This document shows, one piece after another, positions 1-18,106 of a DNA stretch of 32,000 nt; the first letter of the stretch is position 1, and each line of letters begins with the position of its first letter. Location: NCBI GenBank assembly GCA_942493105.1, contig OW818668.1, forward strand, positions 1,410,001-1,442,000, written 5' to 3'. A program made the position numbers and the translations under genes. This DNA is from an uncultured Erysipelotrichaceae bacterium (GTDB lineage: Bacteria; Bacillota_I; Bacilli_A; Erysipelotrichales; Erysipelotrichaceae). The notes under the pieces are model-generated. The model did no database searches, was not told the origin of the DNA, and was given only the letters and a program-made list of their open reading frames with translations.

Positions 1-573
1 AATGCCCAGTTTACCACAGTACAGCAACATGTTCATTTCATATTCGTAGCGGTCACCTTTGACTTTGACGAATTTATCAAGCGTAATTTTACTAAAGGCA
101 CGAAGTCCGGTTTGCGTATCCTTGATTTTCTGACCAATCAAATAACTGGTGATCAATCGGGTTATTTTATTGCCCAACATACTTTTTAATGGGACTTGTC
201 GTTCATTGAAACTCCGGCTACCTAAAACTAATGCGTTTGGATGTTGCTGAGCAGCTTCAAGGACTCTTACAATGTCTTTGGTTTGATGCTGACCATCCGC
301 ATCGACAGTAACAAAGACATCAATATCACTTTGTGTTTGACAATACTCCATAGCTGTTTTTAATGCTCTGCCTTTTCCTTGATTGACCTTGTGAGTCAAA
401 ACAACCACGTGGTTTTGTTGGGATGCCAAATCAAAAAACTCGTCACAAGTGGCTTTACTGCCATCATTGATGACGATGATCAAATCTGCTGCTGAAACTA
501 AATTAAGTTCATCAATCAGTTTGTTTAAACGGAAATCGGGTTGATATGCTGGAATCAATATTGCTTTTTTCAT
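1..573 (-). CDS. Family-2 glycosyltransferase (GT2/GT-A), N-terminal 191 codons; the gene runs off the left edge
   Basis: Absent from the ORF track because no stop lies in the window. The reverse complement from ATG (573-571) gives 191 open codons: MKKAILIPAYQPDFRLNKLIDEL..VINDGSKATCDEFF..VNQGKGRALKTAMEY..VTVDADGQH..DTQTGLRAF..GDRYEYEMNMLLYCGKLGI. NDGS, the DxD-type DAD and QTGLRAF are classic GT2 motifs. Confidence 0.8.
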   Translation of the reverse strand, partial: MKKAILIPAYQPDFRLNKLIDELNLVSAADLIIVINDGSKATCDEFFDLASQQNHVVVLTHKVNQGKGRALKTAMEYCQTQSDIDVFVTVDADGQHQTKDIVRVLEAAQQHPNALVLGSRSFNERQVPLKSMLGNKITRLITSYLIGQKIKDTQTGLRAFSKITLDKFVKVKGDRYEYEMNMLLYCGKLGI

Positions 574-660
574 AGGACATAGATATTATACTGTATTAAA
601 ATGAGACAGACATTAAAAAGTTATAAAAGCATTGCAATCATGGTAAAATAATATGGTACT

Positions 661-3546
661 ATGTTGAAAATTTCTAGACAGCATTTCATTCGCAATGGCG
701 TCATTATGTTAACGATCACCGCACTTATATGCGGGGCTTTGTTGTTAAGCTTGATGTCTGAAAGTATAAAAGTCGTTAATCAAGATCCTGATGTGATCGA
801 ACCTGATGGAACCAGTGCCCTTCATGCTTTGGTGATCCATGAAATCATGAGCTCTAATAAGGGCGCCGTAGCAGATCCCCAAGGCAATACCTATGATTGG
901 ATCGAATTGTATAACGGAACCAGCCGAGACATCGACTTAAGTAATTATGGATTAAGTGATACTAAAAATGAAACCAAGTGGATCTTTCCTAAGACCATTA
1001 TCAAAGCAAAGACCTTTTTAGTCATCTATTTGACCAATAAAACAATGCCTGGATTATATGCTAATTTTGGCTTAAAAAGTGAAGGCGGCGAGACTGTCGT
1101 TTTAAGGGATTCAGGAGGTATGATCGTTGATCAAGTGGATGTCCCAGCTTTAGGTGCCAATTGGGTCTTGGCTAGAAACAATAGTGGATCATGGGTTATT
1201 TATGATCAGGCTACTCCTGGATTTTCAAACACAGCTTTAGGATTTGATGCTTATATCGCATCGATCACCAAAGAAAAAGGGGCTGTCTTGATCAGTGAAG
1301 TGTTCCCTAGGAATGCTGGCAACTTTAAATCGGATTTGGCAGGATTACCTGGATATATTGAAATTACCAATACTGGAACTTTATCAGTCAATCTAGAAAA
1401 CTATTCGATTGGAGATGAATTTACTTCACCCTTTCAATGGGGCTTTCCTTCAATCAGTTTGGAAGCAGGTCAATCGATTGTTGTCTATACTTCAAATTTA
1501 AATCGAAAAGAAGGGGAACTGCATGCGGATTTCAGTTTGAATGCGCAAAATGGTTCAGTTTTCTTAAGCGATGGGACAGGTCATATCATTGATCGTGTGG
1601 ACTATAAAATGTTGCCTAATGGTTATGCTTTACAGAGAAATAACGGCGTTTATGAAGTGTCGGCTGCCCTAAGCCCAGGTTATCCAAATACGATCAGTGG
1701 GATTACCGCTTATCAAAAGACACTAAAGACACCCAGCGGTTTGATCCTTAATGAGATCATGACCAACAACAATACACTTCTAAAACACAATGGAGCCAAT
1801 GCCTACAATTGGGTCGAATTAAAAAATAATACCAATACCACCATCGACTTAAGCGAATATACGATTTCTGAATCTTTCAATGTGCTCAATGCGGTTTCAT
1901 TGCCTAAAGTATTGCTTGAACCAGGAGCTTATATCATATTAATGGGTTCTGGAGATGCCTCATTAAGCACAAGTATTTATCATCATATCGACTTAAAGAT
2001 CAACAATGATGAATCTTTATATCTGTTTAAAGGTCAACAACTTCAAGATTGTTTATTTGCATCTGGGCTCAAAGCAGAAACCAGCTATGGACGAGCAGAT
2101 GATCATGGTTTTATCTACATGAATGATCCAAGCCCCAATGCTGCAAACAATTCAGGTGTTAGAGCCATTAGTATCGCAGCAGTATCAACGATTGAAAGCG
2201 GTGTATATGATCGCTCAAGCATCACCTTTAATTTACTATCAGGGGGGAATGTTTATTACACCACCAATGGTTCTACTCCCAATTCCAGTAGCCCCAAAGC
2301 CACACAACCCATCACCCTTTCAAAGTCAGCAGTTGTGAAAGCCATCACACTAGAAGATGGCAAATGGCCCTCTGAGGTCATTTCTTACACCTATATCATC
2401 AATGAAAAATTTACGTTACCCGTTGTTTCTTTATCAATGAATGAAGCACATTTCAGTGATTTACAAGCTAACCCTTGGAACAGCACATTGGAGTATCCTG
2501 GCTATATCGAATATTATGCAAATGATGGGGGATTTTCTAGTCCCTGCGGTGTCCAACTATTTGGAGGTTCTGTTAGGGGTTTGCCTAAAAAGAGTTTCGC
2601 AATTACATTTGAAGCACAGTATGGAGCCAGTAAACTAAATTATAAAGTATTCGAAAAACGGGATTTTTCAGTTTTTGATACCTTGGTCTTAAGGTCTGGT
2701 TCACAGGATTATGAAACGACATTTTTTAGGGATATTTTGGCGTCTTCTGTTATGGAAGATTCTGATACGGTAGAAGTTCAAGCCTTTACTTCCGTGATCT
2801 TGTTTATCAATGGTAAATATTGGGGACTTTATGATTTTCGTGAAAAAATTGATGATGATTTTATCGCAACCCATCTAAATGTCGATGAATCCACCGTTTC
2901 TGTCGTTAGGACAGGAGGTTCGATTTCGGCAGGTAACAAGATTGCATATAATGCATTGATGACTTATGTTGATACACATGATCTATCGATTCAATCCAAT
3001 TATGAACATGTTAAAACCTTACTCAACATTGACAGTTATATCGACTTTTGGATCGCAGAACTCTTTACAACCAATAATGATGTCATCAATACCCGCTATT
3101 TTTCTTCGACCGAGTATGATGATGGAAGAATAAGTATGATTGCCTATGACTTTGATTTTGCCTGGTATTTTCCAGATCGAGAATATTATAAATTCATGAC
3201 TGATCCTGCTGGGATGAGTCGGCTTTTGGTTTCAACTTTACTGAATCGTCGACTTTTTGAAAGCGAAGCTTATCGTACACGTTTTTTAGAGCGTCTCAGT
3301 TTGAATCTCAAGACCATATGGAAAGAAGAAAATGTTCTGGCAAAACTAGAGATGCTTTATACGACATTGAAACCTGAAATCAGACGTGACTTTCAGCGAT
3401 GGAACCTAGATCCAAATTCATGGGAAGGCAATGTCGATTTTTTAAGAAACTTTATAAAATCACGTACCAAAAGCTTACTTAAACAAACCAAAGCTTTCTT
3501 TAACTTAACCCAAGCTGAATTTGATGCTTACTTTGGAGACTTATAA
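661..3546 (+). CDS. CotH-family atypical kinase-like protein: N-terminal membrane anchor, three lamin-tail domains (LTD), a chitobiase/Fn3-associated-like module and a C-terminal CotH domain
   Basis: 961-aa ORF. A basic N-terminus (K3, R6, R11) precedes a hydrophobic helix (VIMLTITALICGALLLSLM). Three repeats have the LTD pattern (IHEIMSSN..YDWIELYN..IDLSNYGLSD; LISEVFPRN..GYIEITN..VNLENYSIGD; ILNEIMTNN..YNWVELKN..IDLSEYTISE). The segment VYYTTNGSTP..AVVKAITLEDGKWPSEV resembles a chitobiase C-terminal module. The C-terminal ~370 aa (FRDILASSVMEDS..ILFINGKYWGLYDFREKIDDDF..FDFAW) matches the CotH pattern. Confidence 0.8.
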   Translation: MLKISRQHFIRNGVIMLTITALICGALLLSLMSESIKVVNQDPDVIEPDGTSALHALVIHEIMSSNKGAVADPQGNTYDWIELYNGTSRDIDLSNYGLSDTKNETKWIFPKTIIKAKTFLVIYLTNKTMPGLYANFGLKSEGGETVVLRDSGGMIVDQVDVPALGANWVLARNNSGSWVIYDQATPGFSNTALGFDAYIASITKEKGAVLISEVFPRNAGNFKSDLAGLPGYIEITNTGTLSVNLENYSIGDEFTSPFQWGFPSISLEAGQSIVVYTSNLNRKEGELHADFSLNAQNGSVFLSDGTGHIIDRVDYKMLPNGYALQRNNGVYEVSAALSPGYPNTISGITAYQKTLKTPSGLILNEIMTNNNTLLKHNGANAYNWVELKNNTNTTIDLSEYTISESFNVLNAVSLPKVLLEPGAYIILMGSGDASLSTSIYHHIDLKINNDESLYLFKGQQLQDCLFASGLKAETSYGRADDHGFIYMNDPSPNAANNSGVRAISIAAVSTIESGVYDRSSITFNLLSGGNVYYTTNGSTPNSSSPKATQPITLSKSAVVKAITLEDGKWPSEVISYTYIINEKFTLPVVSLSMNEAHFSDLQANPWNSTLEYPGYIEYYANDGGFSSPCGVQLFGGSVRGLPKKSFAITFEAQYGASKLNYKVFEKRDFSVFDTLVLRSGSQDYETTFFRDILASSVMEDSDTVEVQAFTSVILFINGKYWGLYDFREKIDDDFIATHLNVDESTVSVVRTGGSISAGNKIAYNALMTYVDTHDLSIQSNYEHVKTLLNIDSYIDFWIAELFTTNNDVINTRYFSSTEYDDGRISMIAYDFDFAWYFPDREYYKFMTDPAGMSRLLVSTLLNRRLFESEAYRTRFLERLSLNLKTIWKEENVLAKLEMLYTTLKPEIRRDFQRWNLDPNSWEGNVDFLRNFIKSRTKSLLKQTKAFFNLTQAEFDAYFGDL

Positions 3547-4223
3547 TGGAATACCGCCATGAACTAAAGTTCATCATGACGCCGACCAATGCGATGCTTC
3601 TTAAGAAAATCTTGCGCAATTTAATGGAAATCGATCGTAATGGGGACGCGAATGGATGTTATATGGTAAGAAGTCTCTACTTTGATACCTTGGGAGGCGC
3701 AGCATTCTTTGATAAAATGGATGGGGTAGAATATCGTAAGAAATACAGAATACGTTACTACAACAGCAATACGGACTTCATCCGAATGGAATCTAAGATG
3801 AAAATTGATGACCTGTCGGTTAAGAAACAAGAACGAATCGAATTGAAACAAGCTCAAGACCTCATTCAAGGTCACATTGAATCTGTTCCATTAAAACCAA
3901 ATTCCGTCATGACCGATTTTGTATGTGATCTAAAGTTACAAGGATTAAGGCCTTCTGTCATCGTGGATTATCAAAGAACAGCTTTTCTGCATCAAGCACT
4001 GGATGTGAGGATCACCTTCGATGAGAATATACGATCACGAATCTATGATACTGATTTGTTTAAAACAAATTTTGCCTCCATCAGAGTCTTAGATCCCAAT
4101 GAAGTTGTCTTAGAAGTCAAATACAACGATATTATTCCGCAATCCATAGCCGATGTGATCAAGCATGTTCCGATGACACGGTTGGCGGTCAGTAAATATG
4201 CATATTGCTACAACAAAAAATAG
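3546..4223 (+). CDS. VTC-domain / triphosphate-tunnel-metalloenzyme (TTM) protein, polyphosphate-polymerase-like, soluble
   Basis: 225-aa ORF. The start overlaps the CotH stop (TAATG). It has the N-terminal YRHELKF (ExK-type TTM signature) and alternating charged beta-strand motifs (VRSLYFDT, KYRIRYY, RMESKMKI, VIVDYQRTAF, VRITFDENIR, VLEVKYN) typical of bacterial VTC-domain proteins. No hydrophobic segments. Confidence 0.7.
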   Translation: MEYRHELKFIMTPTNAMLLKKILRNLMEIDRNGDANGCYMVRSLYFDTLGGAAFFDKMDGVEYRKKYRIRYYNSNTDFIRMESKMKIDDLSVKKQERIELKQAQDLIQGHIESVPLKPNSVMTDFVCDLKLQGLRPSVIVDYQRTAFLHQALDVRITFDENIRSRIYDTDLFKTNFASIRVLDPNEVVLEVKYNDIIPQSIADVIKHVPMTRLAVSKYAYCYNKK

Positions 4224-4232
4224 GAGGATTTC

Positions 4233-4904
4233 ATGGAAATCATCGAACTGATTCAGAATGCGATCGTACAACAGTTTACCGGCACCATATCACTAACCAG
4301 TATCTTATTATCACTGTTTAGTTCCTTTGTGATTGCTTTGTTTATTCTTGTGGTCTATAAGCGAACCTACAATGGGGTCGTAATGTCGAGATCCTTCAGT
4401 TTACTGTTGGTGCTCTTGGCCATGGTTACTTCATTAGCCGTTAGAACCATCAGTTCTAACTTGGCTTTATCCTTGGGGATGGTGGGTGCTTTATCCATCG
4501 TACGTTATCGTACAGCCGTCAAAGATCCCATGGATACCGGTTTTATCTTCTGGGCCATCATGGCTGGGATCATGACCGGGATTGGTTTGTATCTGATTGC
4601 CATCGTGTCTGCGTTAGCGTTGGGTTTATTGTTTATGTTGGTGTTTGGCTTTCAAATCAAACGAAGCGCTCAATTCTTATTGATCGTACGTTATGAATCG
4701 TTAGCTCATGAAGCTGTATTGACGGCTTTATCTAAATTACCTGCGCATAAACTTAGAAATAAAACCATGGTGGGTTCAACGATCGAACTGACTTATGACA
4801 TTGAAATCAAAGCCCATGAAGAACAGATCGTAGACCCCATCAAAGCCATCCGTGGCGTAGAATCCGTGAATCTGATTTCTTATCAACATGATTATGGACT
4901 ATAA
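4233..4904 (+). CDS. DUF4956-family polytopic membrane protein with a C-terminal soluble domain
   Basis: 223-aa ORF with AGGAGG 6 nt upstream. At least four hydrophobic segments lie in residues ~20-140. It carries the conserved-looking core GALSIVRYRTAVKDPMDTGFIFWAIMAGIMTGIG, which I recognise as DUF4956-like. The last ~75 aa are hydrophilic. Confidence 0.65.
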   Translation: MEIIELIQNAIVQQFTGTISLTSILLSLFSSFVIALFILVVYKRTYNGVVMSRSFSLLLVLLAMVTSLAVRTISSNLALSLGMVGALSIVRYRTAVKDPMDTGFIFWAIMAGIMTGIGLYLIAIVSALALGLLFMLVFGFQIKRSAQFLLIVRYESLAHEAVLTALSKLPAHKLRNKTMVGSTIELTYDIEIKAHEEQIVDPIKAIRGVESVNLISYQHDYGL

Positions 4905-4931
4905 ACAAGCATCTTGAGATGCTTGTTTCTT
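4903..4931 (+). terminator. Rho-independent terminator ending the CotH-VTC-DUF4956 operon
   Basis: Perfect 11-bp stem AAACAAGCATC (4903-4913) / GATGCTTGTTT (4918-4928) with loop TTGA, followed by a CTT tail. It begins inside the TAA stop. Confidence 0.7.
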
Positions 4932-4956
4932 AGTGAATCAGAAAGTCTGTGATAAA

Positions 4957-5682
4957 ATGAAACCTGTGAAAAACACATACGATGAGATCCTTGAAACCAT
5001 CGATCATGCTTTATCCAAAGGACAAATCAAAACAGCTTTGGACTTGATCGATGAAGAACTGCGAATGCCTTATGTTCCGTCTTATGTTTTGGCTAAACTG
5101 ATGCAGTTTAAGGAGATCGCGCTAACGGCTCAAAAAATGAATCAAGAGATTCATTTGGATATGAGCGAAGAAGGGATCTTGGCTTATCTAAAACAAGATG
5201 AGCTTCATCAGCTCAGAGCCCTAGAAGCTTTTAGTGTCATGAATATGCGTTCTGTCATCCCCTTGGTTCAAAAAGCTTTCGATCTGATCGATAAAAGACT
5301 ATTGAAGTGCCTTTTGTGCAAATTGACCATTGAGCAAGCTTTGACTGAATCCTTTACCTTCAGTGATGAAGGGATAAGGTATGAATTCATCCCGGCTGCT
5401 TTGACTTTACCTGAAGACAGTGAAGGCATTCAGAAAGCAAAAGCTTATCTTAAGAGCTGGCTTGAGGATGATGATCCGTCGATGCTGAAGTTGTGTTTGG
5501 AACAAATGGAATTAGAAAGCTTGTTGAAACTGCCTGAAACGATTGATGAAGACGAGGCTTTTGATCTAGCCTTTCAAATTCTGGAAACCATTTTTCTGAT
5601 GTTGTCGACCAAGGAACGCTTTGAAGCATTCCTCATCGATAAAGGACTTCGAAAAAGCGGTCGTTTAGCACTCTTTAATTGA
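4957..5682 (+). CDS. Hypothetical all-helical acidic protein (possibly DUF3196/MPN330-like)
   Basis: The ORF track starts at GTG 4933, but that codon abuts the terminator hairpin, so the in-frame ATG at 4957 (MKPVKNTYDEILETIDHAL..) is more plausible. No catalytic motifs recognised. It sits directly upstream of tig-lon. Confidence 0.5.
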   Translation: MKPVKNTYDEILETIDHALSKGQIKTALDLIDEELRMPYVPSYVLAKLMQFKEIALTAQKMNQEIHLDMSEEGILAYLKQDELHQLRALEAFSVMNMRSVIPLVQKAFDLIDKRLLKCLLCKLTIEQALTESFTFSDEGIRYEFIPAALTLPEDSEGIQKAKAYLKSWLEDDDPSMLKLCLEQMELESLLKLPETIDEDEAFDLAFQILETIFLMLSTKERFEAFLIDKGLRKSGRLALFN

Positions 5683-5706
5683 CAGTGCTAAATAAAGTGT
5701 TATAAT
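5679..5706 (+). promoter_or_regulatory. Sigma-A type promoter for tig
   Basis: TTGACA (5679-5684), a 16-nt spacer, then the extended -10 TGtTATAAT (5698-5706). AGGAGG at 5720-5725 lies 5 nt before the tig ATG. Confidence 0.6.
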
Positions 5707-5730: not shown

Positions 5731-6999
5731 ATGAAATCAACTTGGACATTAAACGAAAAATCAAATGGAGTATTGAGTGTCAGTCTCGACGGTGAAGCAT
5801 GGGTCAAAGCCCAAGCCAAAGCCCTAAAAAAACTGGCTGAAAAAACGGAAATCAAGGGCTTCCGTAAAGGTAAGGCCCCTGTCGATAAAGTAAAAGCCTC
5901 TTTGAGTGAACAAGAAATCTTGATCAACGCGGTGGAAACGATTGCCCAAGAAGCTTTAGAATTTGGCTTGGAAGAATCGAAAATCGATCCGATCAGCCGT
6001 CCGGAATTGGGTGTTGAGAAGTTAACGGCTGAAGAAGTCGTAATGACCTTTACCTTTGATGTCAAACCAGAAGTCACATTAGGTCAATACAAAGACTTAG
6101 GCATCAAACGTGAAAAAGTTGAAGTAACACAAGCTGAAATCGATGTAGAAGTTGAAAAACTCAGAGAAGAATTCGCTGAACTTGTTTTAAAAGAAACAGG
6201 ACAAGTTGAAGACAAAGATACCGCTGTGATCGATTTTGAAGGCTTTAAAGACGGGATTGCTTTTGAAGGCGGTAAAGGTGAAAACTACGCTTTAGAAATC
6301 GGATCCAACAGCTTTATTCCTGGTTTTGAAGAAGCTTTGATTGGTTTAGAAACAGGTTCAACCAAAGATGTTGAATTGACTTTCCCTGAAAACTATCAAG
6401 CTGAACATTTAGCAGGCCAAAAAGTTGTCTTCAAAGTTAAAATCAATGAAATCAAATCCAAACAACTCCCTGAAGTCAATGATGATTTCGCTAAGACGGT
6501 CAATCATCATGAAACAGATACCTTGGTAGGTTTACTCGAACATCTCGAAATGCATTTGAAAGAAGATAAAGAACAAAAAGCAGATGAAGCTTATACCAAT
6601 GCGATCTTGACGAAAGTCGTGGATGGCGCAAGTGTTGAAGTTCCTTCTTCACTGGTCAGTGAAGAAGCAGATCGCATGATGGAAGATTTCAAAGCCAGAT
6701 TGCAGCAACAAGGATTCTCATTTGAACAGTTTACGCAAATCACAGGTCAAAGTGTGGATTCACTCAGAGACCAAATGAGTGTTGATGCGTCTGGTAAAGT
6801 TAAAGTAAGATTGGTCTTGGATGCGGTTGCGACTGCAGAAAACATCGAAGTCAGTCCTGAAGAAATAGAAGCAGAATACCAAAAGATCGCAGAGACGTAT
6901 ACGATGGAAGTCAGTAAGGTCAAAGAATTGGCTCAGCCTGAAACCATTGCATATGATTTGCGTTTACGCAAAGCCTTTGATTTAATCAAAGCAGACTAA
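5731..6999 (+). CDS. tig: Trigger factor (ribosome-associated PPIase chaperone)
   Basis: 422 aa. N-terminal ribosome-binding signature GFRKGKAP. Central FKBP domain (IDFEGFKDGIAFEGGKGENYALEIGSNSFIPGFEEALIGL). Strong SD. Confidence 0.95.
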   Translation: MKSTWTLNEKSNGVLSVSLDGEAWVKAQAKALKKLAEKTEIKGFRKGKAPVDKVKASLSEQEILINAVETIAQEALEFGLEESKIDPISRPELGVEKLTAEEVVMTFTFDVKPEVTLGQYKDLGIKREKVEVTQAEIDVEVEKLREEFAELVLKETGQVEDKDTAVIDFEGFKDGIAFEGGKGENYALEIGSNSFIPGFEEALIGLETGSTKDVELTFPENYQAEHLAGQKVVFKVKINEIKSKQLPEVNDDFAKTVNHHETDTLVGLLEHLEMHLKEDKEQKADEAYTNAILTKVVDGASVEVPSSLVSEEADRMMEDFKARLQQQGFSFEQFTQITGQSVDSLRDQMSVDASGKVKVRLVLDAVATAENIEVSPEEIEAEYQKIAETYTMEVSKVKELAQPETIAYDLRLRKAFDLIKAD

Positions 7000-9348: not shown

Positions 9349-9926
9349 TGGCTGGTTTCCAGCAAGCCGTCTTTGTGACGACAGCCGTATCTAAAACAGG
9401 CTTTGCCTTAACGGATTTGCCTGAATTGGTATTGGCTGGAAGAAGCAATGTCGGAAAGTCGAGTTTCATCAATACCCTATGTCGCCAAAAGTCGCTGGCC
9501 TATGTTGGCAAACGTCCTGGTAAGACCCGCTATATCAACTTTTATCAAGTTGAAGGATTATTATCCATGGTGGATGTTCCAGGTTATGGTTATGCCAATC
9601 GATCAAAAAGCGAACTCAAAGCGTATGGTACCTTGATGGAAGACTACTTCAACACGCGTCAAAACATCAAAGCGGTGATCTTGGTCATCGATTCACGTCA
9701 TGGTTTGACCGGCGATGATGAAGATATGCTGAACTATGTCACTGAAAAGAAACTGCCATTGTTGATCGTTGCAACCAAGTCTGATAAGTTGACTCAGTCT
9801 GAAAAGATGAAGACCAATAAAGAACTTCAGTTAAGATTTGGAAGCAATGTGATCTTATTTTCTGCCCTTAGACATTTGGGCATTGAAGAGGTCGAAAACT
9901 GGATCATGAATAAAATAAAAACCTAA
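9348..9926 (+). CDS. engB: Ribosome-biogenesis GTPase EngB/YsxC
   Basis: 192 aa with G1 GRSNVGKSSFIN, G3 DVPGYG and G4 TKSDK. The start overlaps the lon stop (TAATG). Conserved lon-ysxC synteny. Confidence 0.9.
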   Translation: MAGFQQAVFVTTAVSKTGFALTDLPELVLAGRSNVGKSSFINTLCRQKSLAYVGKRPGKTRYINFYQVEGLLSMVDVPGYGYANRSKSELKAYGTLMEDYFNTRQNIKAVILVIDSRHGLTGDDEDMLNYVTEKKLPLLIVATKSDKLTQSEKMKTNKELQLRFGSNVILFSALRHLGIEEVENWIMNKIKT

Positions 9927-9944
9927 GCATGCTTAGGTTTTTTT
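9921..9944 (+). terminator. Rho-independent terminator after engB
   Basis: Palindrome ACCTAAGC-AT-GCTTAGGT followed by a run of 7 T (9938-9944). Confidence 0.75.
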
Positions 9945-9952
9945 GATATAAT
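9944..9952 (+). promoter_or_regulatory. Extended -10 promoter element (TGaTATAAT) upstream of the 565-aa ORF
   Basis: TGATATAAT lies 24 nt upstream of ATG 9977. AGGAGA SD at 9965-9970. Confidence 0.4.
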
Positions 9953-9976
9953 AGGGCAATAGTTAGGAGAAAACCG

Positions 9977-11674
9977 ATGAAACAAGCCCTCTACATCAAA
10001 GACAATACAGCCATCATCAACTTTTCTACTTTTTTTGCACAGACGACGGATGAATTCATCTCTTCGGATAGTTTCAAGAAAATGATGAGTCATTATGTGA
10101 GCTCTTTAAAGATAGAAAACAAAGAACGTTATGATTGGTTGACCAAAGGGCTCAGTGAATCAGAAGCCTTGAATCAATTGGTGAAGGTCTTTAAGCTATT
10201 GTTGGTATTGGATGTCGAAGAAGTTTCACATCCCTTGCTTAGTGACCGCAATCGCTTCAACGCCATGATTGAGGACTGGTATAACAGCTGGAGACAACTT
10301 CAACGCTGTTCTGTCATCAAGATCTCTTCTTCTCACTCTGGTCAAGTCAATAACTTCATCGAAGCGGACACGAAATTTAACGCATTGATCCTATCTGTTT
10401 ATCGTGGGATCCAAGAAAAAATACAAGGTCATAAAAATCGTGTTTATCGTCAACTTCAAGCTGGAACAAATGCTTCGATGGTGCTTAAGGATGTCAGATG
10501 GCCCATTTTTGAAGGCTATGAAGCTTTAAAAGGCATCCCGTTTGTCGATTCAATGTTGATTCGGGCCCCTTTACTGCTTCATCCGAGAAGCTCAAAACGA
10601 GTGGGTTCATTTGAACCAGTCTTGGTCAATCCATTTAATGGGTTGACACTCGATCGTGAAGAATGGTTTTGTTATCCCGCTAAAGTAGGCAGTTTACTGA
10701 TCTTGATTTATGTTCATATCGACTTTACCTTCTCTGGGATCACCAACGCCAATCTCTTTGAATTGGCCAGCGATGAAGAAGTCTTAAAATCTAGACCAGA
10801 TGGGATCGTCTTATTTGGACTCAAAGATAAATCCGATGAATGTACGTATACTTATGACGATAAAAATAAAGTCTGGATCGGTAAAGTACCTTATCAAACC
10901 CGTATCGAATACTTTGGGTATATGAAAAAAATGGTCTTGACCATTCATAATGTGATCATGATGAAAAATGGATGGTTACCGATCCATGGGTCCATGATCA
11001 ATGTCAATTTTAAAGATGGTCGAAAAATAGGGGTCGTCTTTATGGGCGACAGTGGAGCTGGTAAATCCGAAACCATTGAAGCCATACAAATGTGCGGTCA
11101 TGAAGATCTTGTCTCCATGGATGTCATCTTTGATGATATGGGATCCTTTCATGTTGAAAATGGTCAATTGGTGGCTCAAGGAACGGAGATTGGTGCTTTC
11201 ATCAGATTGGATGATCTTGATAAAGGTTCACCGTACAAAACCATGGATCGTTCCATCTTTATGAATCCGGAATCTACCGTCAATGCCCGAGTCGTTATTC
11301 CTGTCAATACCTATAAAGAAATCGTAAAAAATCACAAAGTCGATTACTTCTTATATGCCAATAATTATGCTGATAAAACAGGCTTATTGATTGCGAAAAG
11401 TGCGGCTGATCTTAAGCACGTCTTCATCGAAGGGAAACGAATGGCCATGGCGACGACCCATGAGTCAGGTTTATCGACCACGTATTTTGCCAATCCTTTT
11501 GGACCCATGCAAAATCAAGCCCTGTGTGATCCCTTGATCGAACATTACTTCAAAGTCCTCGATGAAACACAGGTCAAGACTGGTGAAGTTTATACAGGTC
11601 TAGGCCTAAAAGAAAAGGTGGATAACCACCTCGAATTGACTGCCCAAGCTGTCTTAAATCTCATTCACGACTAA
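9977..11674 (+). CDS. Uncharacterised PEPCK(ATP)/HprK-superfamily P-loop kinase-like protein
   Basis: 565 aa. The motif order parallels ATP-PEPCK: HPRSSKRVG (cf GRSPKDK); YFGYMKKMVLTIHNV..LPIHGSMINV (cf YxGEMKK..MNY.LP...MHCSAN); P-loop FMGDSGAGKSETI (cf GLSGTGKTTLS, but identical in style to HprK GDSGxGKSE); IFDDMGSF (cf IGDDEHGW); NARVVIPV (cf NTRxxYP). Substrate-binding residues differ from canonical PckA. Confidence 0.55.
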   Translation: MKQALYIKDNTAIINFSTFFAQTTDEFISSDSFKKMMSHYVSSLKIENKERYDWLTKGLSESEALNQLVKVFKLLLVLDVEEVSHPLLSDRNRFNAMIEDWYNSWRQLQRCSVIKISSSHSGQVNNFIEADTKFNALILSVYRGIQEKIQGHKNRVYRQLQAGTNASMVLKDVRWPIFEGYEALKGIPFVDSMLIRAPLLLHPRSSKRVGSFEPVLVNPFNGLTLDREEWFCYPAKVGSLLILIYVHIDFTFSGITNANLFELASDEEVLKSRPDGIVLFGLKDKSDECTYTYDDKNKVWIGKVPYQTRIEYFGYMKKMVLTIHNVIMMKNGWLPIHGSMINVNFKDGRKIGVVFMGDSGAGKSETIEAIQMCGHEDLVSMDVIFDDMGSFHVENGQLVAQGTEIGAFIRLDDLDKGSPYKTMDRSIFMNPESTVNARVVIPVNTYKEIVKNHKVDYFLYANNYADKTGLLIAKSAADLKHVFIEGKRMAMATTHESGLSTTYFANPFGPMQNQALCDPLIEHYFKVLDETQVKTGEVYTGLGLKEKVDNHLELTAQAVLNLIHD

Positions 11675-16710: not shown

Positions 16711-17565
16711 ATGAACCGACTCAATCCTTTAAACCGATTCTTACTTAAACTCATAGCGGGTTTGCTTGCCATATCCGTGTTTTTAGCTGCAGTCAGATTT
16801 AATTCATCGTTACAAAGTTCAACCGATCAGGCTTTTGGTTTCTTTACGAGCTTAAGAGTGACCTTGTTTGATCAACCGATCCAAGCCTTGGGCAATTTCA
16901 TTACGGATTTTACGTCACTTTATGCCCTAAAGGCTGAAAATGATCGTTTACGTTTACAAATCGACATGCTTGAACAATTTCAAGCACGTTTAGAAGAAGC
17001 CTATCGCGATATTGAAGATCTAAAAGTGCTCAACGATCTTAAACAGTCGATGACAGAATATCATGTGATTGCGGCAATGGTGCTCAATCGTCCCGCTGAC
17101 AGCTTCAATCATAAGATACGTTTGAATGTTGGGACATTGGATGGGGTAGCCCTAAATGATGCGGTCATCAGTTCTGAAGGTTTGATTGGGAAAGTTGTGA
17201 CCGTGACGTCATCGACCTGTGATGTGTTGCTGTTGACCACTGAACAAGAACTCAACAAAGTATCCGTCAAGATCCAAATCTCAAAAACAGACACGATTGA
17301 AGCATTGCTGGAATATTATGATGTCAATGAAGGCGCCTATGTCTTAAGTCTGCTTGAAACCAGTTCATCTGTCGTTGAAGGTATGAGTGTCATCTCCAGT
17401 GGTTTGGGTGAAACTTATCCTAGCGGATTATTGGTCGGCAAAGTTTTAAAAGTTGATACCACGCAAAGTGCAGGCGGTATAAAAGTATTTGTACGTCCAT
17501 CTGCCGATTTTACGCATCTCAATTATGTGGCCATCGTCAAGCGGGGAAATCTCAATGTGGATTGA
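16711..17565 (+). CDS. mreC: Rod shape-determining protein MreC
   Basis: TM anchor, a coiled-coil (ENDRLRLQIDMLEQFQARLEEAYRDIEDLK), then the beta-barrel region (GLIGKV..; SGLGETYPSGLLVGKV). The track ORF starts at TTG 16669. ATG 16711 with AGGGGG 7 nt upstream is preferred. Confidence 0.85.
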   Translation: MNRLNPLNRFLLKLIAGLLAISVFLAAVRFNSSLQSSTDQAFGFFTSLRVTLFDQPIQALGNFITDFTSLYALKAENDRLRLQIDMLEQFQARLEEAYRDIEDLKVLNDLKQSMTEYHVIAAMVLNRPADSFNHKIRLNVGTLDGVALNDAVISSEGLIGKVVTVTSSTCDVLLLTTEQELNKVSVKIQISKTDTIEALLEYYDVNEGAYVLSLLETSSSVVEGMSVISSGLGETYPSGLLVGKVLKVDTTQSAGGIKVFVRPSADFTHLNYVAIVKRGNLNVD

Positions 17566-18106
17566 CCTCGCTTTTGTTTTTGCTGGTTTTACTCTAGACA
17601 GCATCTTAAGGATGATTTTTCCGATCGATCCGGCATTACGTTTTCTTGTCTTTGTGCCTAATCTGGGTTTTTTAGCGTTCTTGCTGGTTTCTCTTAAAAA
17701 AACTTTTCCTCAAGCGTTGATCATGGCTTTTTTATGTGGACTTACGGTTGATTTTTTAAGAAATGAAATGTTGGCCAATGTCATCGCCTATCCCATCAGT
17801 ATCTATGTCATCAAAGTATGGGCCAATCAACTCAATGAATCTATATTTGAGCAGGTTTTTATTGGAACGATAGGCTTGTTTCTAAAAGAGTTTATCTTGT
17901 TTGGGGTATTGACCTTGGGTGGAATCACCCACATCAGCCTCAACAATTGGTTTGTTAAACGTGAATTCTTAACGATCATTGGACATATCCCGCTTTTATT
18001 GGGTTTAAGTATGCTAAATCGAACCAAATCGGGGGCTCAAAATGTCTTAGAACGAAAGAAAAAGCGCCGGGAAAGAGTGCTTTGGAATCCTACTGTAAAG
18101 CCATAG
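17555..18106 (+). CDS. mreD: Rod shape-determining protein MreD
   Basis: A polytopic small membrane protein directly after mreC, overlapping it by 11 nt. The track ORF (from 17489) would lie inside mreC. ATG 17555 (MWIDLAFVFAGFTLDSIL) is preferred. Confidence 0.7.
   Translation: MWIDLAFVFAGFTLDSILRMIFPIDPALRFLVFVPNLGFLAFLLVSLKKTFPQALIMAFLCGLTVDFLRNEMLANVIAYPISIYVIKVWANQLNESIFEQVFIGTIGLFLKEFILFGVLTLGGITHISLNNWFVKREFLTIIGHIPLLLGLSMLNRTKSGAQNVLERKKKRRERVLWNPTVKP

Follow-up and report, generated by a model that had tools for sequence, protein, structure and literature searches.

A CotH, VTC-type and DUF4956 gene module beside GT2-GtrA and NAGPA genes in an Erysipelotrichaceae bacterium: a candidate polyphosphate-linked surface phosphorylation system

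Genes for a CotH-family protein, a VTC-domain protein and a DUF4956 membrane protein stand side by side near the start of the window, by which we mean the whole 32,000-nucleotide stretch of DNA analysed here, from an uncultured Erysipelotrichaceae bacterium (assembly GCA_942493105.1, contig OW818668.1, positions 1,410,001 to 1,442,000 of the forward strand). The first-pass annotation of this DNA knew of no experimental work on such a gene set, a statement that has to be revised. Accessory genes that adjoin pelDEADAFG in streptococci, clostridia and bifidobacteria were described by Whitfield et al. (2020) and comprise cotH, a 'poly-phosphate polymerase', DUF4956 and DUF4832 (PMC7112168), and in Streptococcus intermedius a 2025 study deleted SIR_1594, SIR_1593 and SIR_1592 one by one, with mild phenotypes (PMC12345266). 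Deletion of the CotH homologue and deletion of the DUF4956 homologue both reduced aggregation in sputum medium, and the authors did not find the three-gene synteny outside Pel loci (PMC12345266). This last point does not hold in our data, in which a Pel-type arrangement was counted in one of 84 related loci. The gene set is already known and is biochemically uncharacterised, and our literature search found no enzyme assay or biochemical study of any bacterial VTC or DUF4956 protein; what is new here is the architecture of the CotH protein and a GT2-GtrA/NAGPA context in place of Pel.

Several described systems resemble the window genes. The Pel accessory set shares with them the three contiguous families beside polysaccharide genes, an exported CotH protein, a cytoplasmic VTC protein and a membrane protein with an ACT-like tail. 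It differs in its CotH protein, since SIR_1594 has an N-terminal kinase domain followed by FN3 in about 570 amino acids (aa), whereas the 961-aa window protein carries three LTD domains, a CHB_HEX_C_1 domain and, at its C-terminus, the kinase domain. The partners differ as well, being GT2-GtrA and NAGPA in the window lineage and pel genes with DUF4832 in the Pel set. NELoc-2 of Clostridium perfringens (VTC, a 'tubulin/FtsZ-like' membrane protein, CotH, a 685-aa protein, a HEAT protein and a glycosyltransferase; PMC2879425) also has the trio beside a glycosyltransferase, but in the order VTC-DUF4956-CotH, with a short CotH protein and with a HEAT protein and a chitin-synthase-like glycosyltransferase as partners instead of GT2-GtrA/NAGPA. 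The yeast VTC complex, a polyphosphate polymerase and translocase composed of Vtc4 with Vtc1, Vtc2, Vtc3 and Vtc5, shares the tunnel-domain family, the closest fold, the tunnel residues and the pairing with a membrane component; the window protein, in contrast, is without SPX domain and membrane helices of its own, has a separate DUF4956 partner, and the far side of its membrane is the cell exterior, not the vacuole. CotH of Bacillus subtilis and B. cereus (structure 5jd9) belongs to the same kinase family and shares the conserved catalytic and metal-binding aspartates, but it is a protein of about 360 aa that has no anchor and acts with ATP in the mother-cell cytoplasm on CotB and CotG (PMC7821199), whereas the window protein is 961 aa long and anchored, and no cotB or cotG accompanies it.

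The features of the module are given below by their positions in the window.

573-1, minus strand: GT2 gene, first 191 aa, cut by the window start (sequence, Pfam Glycos_transf_2)
574-660, no strand: intergenic region of 87 bp separating the divergent GT2 and CotH genes (sequence)
661-3546, plus strand: CotH-like gene, 961 aa (open reading frame, ORF)
700-756, plus strand: N-terminal hydrophobic anchor of the CotH protein, aa 14-32 (Kyte-Doolittle)
814-1143, plus strand: LTD 1, aa 52-161 (Pfam E 1.2e-16 on the fragment)
1273-1608, plus strand: LTD 2, aa 205-316 (Pfam E 7.5e-17)
1729-2031, plus strand: LTD 3, aa 357-457 (Pfam E 1.8e-10)
2197-2394, plus strand: CHB_HEX_C_1/Fn3_assoc domain, aa 513-578 (Pfam E 2e-13)
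2554-3477, plus strand: CotH kinase domain, aa 632-939 (Pfam E 2.8e-40)
3079-3081 and 3148-3150, plus strand: codons of D807 and D830 in the CotH kinase domain
3546-4223, plus strand: VTC gene, 225 aa (ORF)
4222-4227, plus strand: Shine-Dalgarno sequence AGGAGG, 5 nt 5' of the DUF4956 ATG (sequence)
4233-4904, plus strand: DUF4956 gene, 223 aa (ORF)
4903-4928, plus strand: operon-end hairpin, perfect 11-bp stem and 4-nt loop, beginning within the DUF4956 stop codon (folding)

A Pfam scan of the window proteins, in which all family matches exceed the curated cut-offs, bears out the families that had been named at first pass (CotH, VTC, DUF4956, LTD and GT2); NCBIfam has no model for the CotH, VTC or DUF4956 protein of the window. 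The positions and sequence likewise agree with the compact operon proposed there, with its divergent GT2 gene. The CotH and VTC genes overlap in TAATG at 3544-3548, where the ATG shares one base with the TAA, and VTC is predicted from this arrangement to be translationally coupled to CotH. The gap between VTC and DUF4956 is only 9 nt (4224-4232) and is entered by the Shine-Dalgarno sequence. Folding confirmed the stem of the closing hairpin (-14.9 kcal/mol, z -2.8 against shuffles), which the annotation had read as a terminator. A consensus terminator scan of the window did not list this hairpin because its tail, CUUAGUG, is poor in U. In the divergent intergenic region the promoter-like matches are weak, at 574-602 on the plus strand and 676-648 on the minus strand, each with 9 of 12 positions.

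The three genes are linked far beyond the window. A scan with one genome per species yielded 80 loci encoding relatives of the VTC protein, to which five others were added, so that the 85 loci were chosen through the VTC protein alone; ORFs were called in all of them and then searched with profiles grown from the window proteins. The gene neighbourhoods, which the first-pass annotation had named as a check, showed DUF4956 adjoining VTC in 82 of the 85 loci, the exceptions being loci cut at an end, and CotH adjoining the pair in about 70. Co-occurrence of the trio is far beyond chance, and we reject chance adjacency. The genes appear in three orders (CotH-VTC-DUF4956, CotH-DUF4956-VTC and VTC-DUF4956-CotH) and in Erysipelotrichia, RF39-type Bacilli, many Clostridia (C. 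difficile among them), Paenibacillaceae and a single Chloroflexota genome. In seven loci the VTC-DUF4956 pair stands without a CotH gene within 10 kb, which fits a supplier with an optional user. Across 52 loci, the CotH, VTC and DUF4956 proteins show correlated pairwise distances (Mantel r 0.85-0.91, p 0.001), a result that we read as joint inheritance and not as contact, since shared descent alone could give it. Clustering of all neighbours uncovered no further universal partner, and one large cluster was an antisense-ORF artefact.

The VTC protein matches Pfam VTC (PF09359) over almost the whole profile, with residues 4-222 on profile positions 2-231 of 235 (E 1.8e-36, 126 bits against a cut-off of 23). 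It is a single-domain protein in which, by Pfam and by the AlphaFold2 (AF2) model, SPX domain and membrane helices of its own are absent; the model is a beta-tunnel with a predicted local distance difference test score (pLDDT) of 92, in keeping with the soluble protein expected at first pass. Single-sequence searches of the PDB were marginal (Vtc4 E 0.2; CotH E 0.058) and were replaced by profile searches. With a profile of 25 homologues the best solved relative is yeast Vtc4 (E 2.9e-8), and a Foldseek search with the model returned Vtc4, Vtc3 or Vtc2 at all of ranks 1-13 (E 2e-12 to 3e-9; template modelling score 0.71 for Vtc4), followed by ygiF (8e-8) and then by CYTH and AtTTM3 (about 1e-6), which are hydrolase or cyclase tunnel enzymes. 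An exact look-up of the window VTC protein gave no match, and homologues were used in its place.

Residue conservation was read in 150 representatives sharing at most 50% identity (some counts are out of 151). Residues K8, R68, R70, K84, Y142, R144 and R155 align in the profile alignment with Vtc4 K200, R264, R266, K281, Y359, R361 and R373, and all seven are invariant or nearly so, so that the tunnel residues proposed earlier as a check are indeed in place. Of the 23 tunnel and motif positions checked, 11 never vary, another 11 are conserved in at least 96%, and K86 is lysine in 139 of 151 and arginine in 11 of 151. Martinez et al. showed four glutamates in hydrolase tunnel enzymes at positions that are basic in Vtc4 (PMC4641920). 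In the window protein the first strand has the sequence R4-x-E6-x-K8 and a later one E190-x-K192; R4 aligns with Vtc4 R196 and is basic where the hydrolases are acidic, and K192 is basic at a hydrolase-acidic position, as placed from the motif only because the C-terminal part was not aligned. The C-terminal third of the protein failed to match Vtc4 in the sequence alignment. E190-x-K192 is invariant in the 150 representatives, as is K217, and S216 is present in 148 of 151; S216-K217 and E190 are, by motif and not by alignment, the putative counterparts of Vtc4 S457-K458 (with the catalytic lysine) and of the metal-site residue E426. The full-length Pfam match, the fold closest to Vtc4, the matched tunnel residues and the basic R4 and K192 make the protein look like a polymerase. 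The family is large, with 5,303 protein clusters at 50% identity (E up to 1e-3). About 19 of the 150 best representatives (P0256, P0263, P0277, P0296, P0259 and P0261 among them) bear a disordered-looking N-terminal extension of 140-400 aa rich in Lys, Glu and Arg, and some of these extensions start with a common motif (FKKLNKEKPLVK).

The 961-aa protein has, by Pfam, three copies of LTD (E 1.7e-43), a CHB_HEX_C_1/Fn3_assoc domain (about 5e-12; CHB_HEX_C_1 4e-12) and a CotH domain (PF08757, E 2.8e-40), the last with 139 bits against a cut-off of 23.8 at aa 632-939. Its best 19-aa Kyte-Doolittle window, 2.52, starts at aa 14 and is preceded by K3, R6 and R11. An N-terminal anchor or signal, lipobox forms among them, was found in 61 of 69 untruncated homologues, and those that have none look like over-extended start codons. 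Because of this anchor in the window protein and its homologues, the kinase domain is predicted to lie outside the cell, as had been suggested for the bulk of the protein. A kinase-domain profile of 23 members found B. cereus CotH 5jd9 with E 2.4e-12. Aligned through this structure, D807 corresponds to D228 and D830 to D251 of B. subtilis CotH, a kinase that is inactivated when these residues are mutated (PMC7821199), and N805, D807, N810, D830 and D832 are invariant in the 23 diverse homologues; the kinase is predicted to be intact and exterior. A spore-coat function, or orthology to the spore-coat CotH (B. subtilis type, about 360 aa, without export signal and linked to cotB/cotG), is rejected in view of the length of 961 aa, the anchor, the extracellular-type domains and the VTC, DUF4956 and GT2 neighbours. 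In one other Erysipelotrichaceae genome (GCA_008080535.1, locus L086, 6482-9314) the CotH gene is in three ORFs; the tig and ABC transporter genes are split too, and the break looks like an assembly error rather than a pseudogene.

The DUF4956 protein was assigned to Pfam PF16316 with E 1.1e-10 (42 bits against a cut-off of 30.6), and 24 of 24 aligned members match this family. Its closest public relative, with 96% identity, is in an Erysipelotrichaceae metagenome-assembled genome. The AF2 model (pLDDT 71) has an N-terminal helix, five predicted membrane helices, as expected for the polytopic protein of the first annotation, and a C-terminal beta-alpha-beta-beta-alpha-beta domain. The basic residues Lys and Arg are concentrated in loops 43-52 and 90-99 and in the part following helix 5, a placement that fits an N-out/C-in topology. 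The motif S88-I-V-R91-x-R93-T94-A-x-K97-x-P99-x-D101 is invariant in 79 DUF4956 sequences, and this basic loop and the ACT-like domain are predicted to face the cytoplasm, toward the VTC enzyme.

By sequence no solved structure in the PDB is related to DUF4956. A Foldseek search with the model placed MgtC C-terminal domains at its top two matches (E 2e-3), both weak and confined to the C-terminal domain, and its list contains no Vtc chain. The proteins of the MgtC/SapB/YhiD type have the same five membrane helices and cytoplasmic ACT-like C-terminal domain, but the sequence similarity to DUF4956 is non-significant and the invariant RxRTAxKxPxD loop is specific to DUF4956. Of the 24 members, 10 have matches to Pfam MgtC (PF02308), all below its cut-off of 31.4 bits (12.9 bits; best E 0.0074). 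Membership of the MgtC/SapB family was rejected on these profile scores, which are below significance. We do not file DUF4956 under MgtC because the Foldseek match is weak and C-terminal only and hhalign against Escherichia coli YhiD is not significant (E 0.057, probability about 1%); the modelled protein may be called MgtC-like in architecture, and no more than that.

The genes around the trio point to glycans. The GT2 fragment matches Glycos_transf_2 (E 4e-16), and among the NCBIfam models it most resembles those of polyprenyl-phosphate sugar synthases (PpgS), with 81 bits, far under the cut-off of 370. Full-length orthologues of about 347 aa (in loci L001, L004, L085 and L089) have a C-terminal GtrA_DPMS_TM domain, seen only beyond the window, and their gene is followed by one for a NAGPA phosphodiester glycosidase and then by one for a 93-133-aa membrane protein without Pfam family (129-132 aa in L085, L001 and L004). 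Three loci, the near-identical L085 together with L001 and L004, have these genes divergent from the trio; in L089 they are co-directional with it, as eight genes on one strand that include two NAGPA genes. The six genes move together, since the flanks differ in L004, and the tie to the GT2 gene foreseen at first pass is seen in both arrangements. RF39-type loci keep NAGPA and replace GT2 by an anchored 340-465-aa protein without Pfam match, the pair being downstream of or divergent from the trio. The NAGPA link survives several rearrangements, as it is kept in the divergent, the co-directional and the RF39-type arrangements. The window contains neither pel genes nor DUF4832, and the same is true of the 6 kb upstream region of L085, where NAGPA, the small protein and an ABC transporter lie. 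The features in other loci are as follows.

L085:3971-6344; L001:1433-3808; L004:4609-6977; L089:2698-5036 and 9507-10791: GT2-GtrA, NAGPA and small membrane protein
L009:11377-12756; L014:5724-7028; L015:6016-7044; L016:11354-12619; L090:3641-5038: anchored 340-465-aa family of RF39-type Bacilli, which in every case forms a pair with NAGPA next to the trio
L029: Pel-type locus, PelG-CotH-VTC-DUF4956-DUF4832
L087: exopolysaccharide cluster on plasmid pNP95 of Pseudobutyrivibrio
L088: 689-aa protein, HEAT protein and glycosyltransferase with the trio on a Planococcus plasmid, matching C. perfringens NELoc-2 (PMC2879425)
L024:7661-9818; L084:7998-9889: two-component genes upstream of VTC-DUF4956(-CotH)

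The pairing of NAGPA with a kinase recalls, in logic only, the animal mannose-6-phosphate tagging pathway (GlcNAc-1-phosphotransferase, then the NAGPA uncovering enzyme) and the Fam20 kinases, in that a NAGPA-family phosphodiester glycosidase and a kinase distantly related to Fam20 would work together outside the cytoplasm on substrates related to glycans; no Stealth or GNPTAB homologue is present here, and the parallel is a lead that draws in part on PMC7821199 and PMC13474241.

Beyond the families, folds, conserved catalytic residues, predicted topology and gene linkage just described, we infer polyphosphate (polyP) synthesis, its transfer across the membrane, the phosphate donor of the kinase and a glycan target. 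The trio would form one membrane-spanning machine, in which VTC, as a tunnel enzyme of the Vtc4 type, would use ATP to make polyP on the inner side of the membrane, and DUF4956 would dock VTC and pass polyP or its phosphoryl groups across. The CotH protein, held at the surface by its one N-terminal helix with three LTD domains and a hexosaminidase-type domain, would phosphorylate a surface polymer with that supply, as a kinase outside the cell lacks its own pool of ATP. In the lineage of the window the target would most likely be a glycan, built from a polyprenyl-phosphate sugar supplied by the divergent GT2-GtrA enzyme and processed by NAGPA. To this reading, in which polyP made inside crosses the membrane and serves an outside CotH kinase that modifies a surface glycan, we give a probability of roughly 40%. 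The wider claim, that this is a third bacterial polyP route in which VTC on DUF4956 delivers polyP or phosphoryl groups outside and anchored CotH enzymes phosphorylate exopolysaccharides or wall glycans, is put forward as tentative. In stalk-forming Zetaproteobacteria a CotH gene lies in a polysaccharide gene cluster adjoining an ATP/ADP antiporter gene (PMC8250860), which may, as a lead only, indicate another way to supply an exported kinase.

Several points weigh against the export of polyP to a surface kinase. We know of no kinase of the CotH fold that uses polyP, and of no channel activity for MgtC. The DUF4956 protein is unrelated to the membrane domain of yeast VTC, its sole resemblance being the weak one to MgtC, and we found no report of a bacterial VTC-domain protein making polyP. 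E6, the second glutamate of a hydrolase-type ExExK motif (Thr198 in Vtc4), is invariant in the VTC family and is alone among the features in being at odds with a pure polymerase. A fusion of VTC to DUF4956 was looked for among the 19 long VTC proteins of the top 150; there was none, the extensions not being DUF4956. The S. intermedius deletions add to these points, as loss of the CotH homologue lowered Pel and loss of the DUF4956 homologue raised it, opposite effects for two parts of the proposed machine, loss of the VTC homologue gave no phenotype, and the authors proposed that polyP stays cytoplasmic (PMC12345266).

A second explanation does without export: in it VTC and DUF4956 make or control polyP, or the balance of phosphate and ATP, on the cytoplasmic side, CotH works separately with extracellular ATP, and the shared operon jointly tunes exopolysaccharide or biofilm output. 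The phenotypes reported are quantitative changes in Pel, with the VTC deletion silent, and those authors favour cytoplasmic polyP (PMC12345266). Additionally, genes for an OmpR-type response regulator and a histidine kinase are found immediately upstream in six loci (L024, L048, L053, L082, L083 and L084) and within 1 kb in L055, which suggests that the module is a dedicated regulon in several Clostridia. The MgtC-like architecture of DUF4956, with its two leading Foldseek matches and the weak Pfam matches in 10 of 24 members, also speaks for it, and such control would resemble the role proposed for MgtC in Salmonella. Yet the relation to MgtC is non-significant by hhalign, and the explanation leaves open why, across three gene orders, the partner found most constantly with VTC and DUF4956 is an exported kinase, and why the three proteins diverge jointly. 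We regard it as a doubtful but realistic alternative.

Coupling of polyP synthesis to a surface kinase may also be set against a third explanation, in which the VTC-like protein is a tunnel hydrolase or cyclase forming or clearing a small phosphorylated signal, the ACT-like domain of DUF4956 senses it, and the trio is a signalling unit controlling surface glycan synthesis. In its favour, the usual ligands of ACT domains are small, hydrolases and cyclases make up most of the characterised bacterial tunnel enzymes, ygiF and CYTH are among the Foldseek matches, and the invariant E6 belongs to the ExExK motif. The protein, however, matches Pfam VTC, and its structure is nearest to Vtc4, the margin in E-value being four to six orders of magnitude; R4 and K192 (the latter from the motif only) are basic as in Vtc4 where hydrolases are acidic, and the counterparts of Vtc4 Y359, R361 and R373 are conserved, as are S216 and K217, whose equivalence to S457-K458 is by motif. 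Such a signalling unit is unlikely on this evidence. That CotH is a non-catalytic surface adhesin or structural protein like the Mucorales CotH invasins, with an indirect link to VTC/DUF4956, is very improbable: its large extracellular region of binding-type domains (LTD, CHB_HEX_C_1) and the role of fungal CotH proteins as host-cell ligands (PMC9973265) would suit it, but N805, D807, N810, D830 and D832 are invariant and align to residues that B. subtilis CotH needs (PMC7821199).

The remaining part of the window is chromosomal housekeeping (DUF3196, tig, lon, engB-like, polA, fpg, coaE, dnaI-like, pfk, pyk and thrS). The idea that the module is an inserted accessory unit beside such genes is borne out in part: the flanks of the six-gene module differ in L004 and transposase genes stand beside it in L001 and L002, but the window itself has no insertion scars and no shift in G+C. 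The transposase genes (HTH_Tnp_2, rve) lie just past the small membrane-protein gene at L001:948-1346 and L002:103-1466, in relatives at 80% identity; the flank of L085 at that position is an ABC transporter. The DUF3196 protein, at 4933-5682, has a weak Pfam match (E 2.5e-7) and is found between the module and tig in the window, L001, L002 and L085; the ATG at 4948 is its likelier start, because the listed GTG overlaps the hairpin. Shortly before tig, which begins at 5731, the sequence at 5679-5706 is a perfect match to a sigma-70-type promoter (TG upstream; TTGACA, 16 nt, TATAAT). A 565-aa protein at 9977-11674, conserved in L001, has a partial and weak PEPCK_ATP match (E 9e-7, residues 310-452), and a 205-aa ORF at 17489-18106 without Pfam match comes directly after mreC, overlaps its end and may be mreD, judged by its position.

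To our knowledge, work on polyP in bacteria rests almost entirely on PPK1 and PPK2. If the window protein and its relatives are polymerases, the VTC family, with its 5,303 clusters and almost always with a DUF4956 partner, would be a third bacterial polyP synthase, and if the polyP is exported, this would explain the phosphate donor of a kinase that works outside the cell. If true, it would be the first extracytoplasmic phosphorylation system independent of outside ATP. The Pel locus of S. intermedius and NELoc-2 of C. perfringens, polysaccharide loci tied to aggregation and virulence, both contain the trio, whose product could therefore be a modification of biofilm or wall glycans by phosphate. 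The instance described here, outside a Pel locus and joined to GT2-GtrA/NAGPA, is a good system for separating the function of the trio from Pel biosynthesis.

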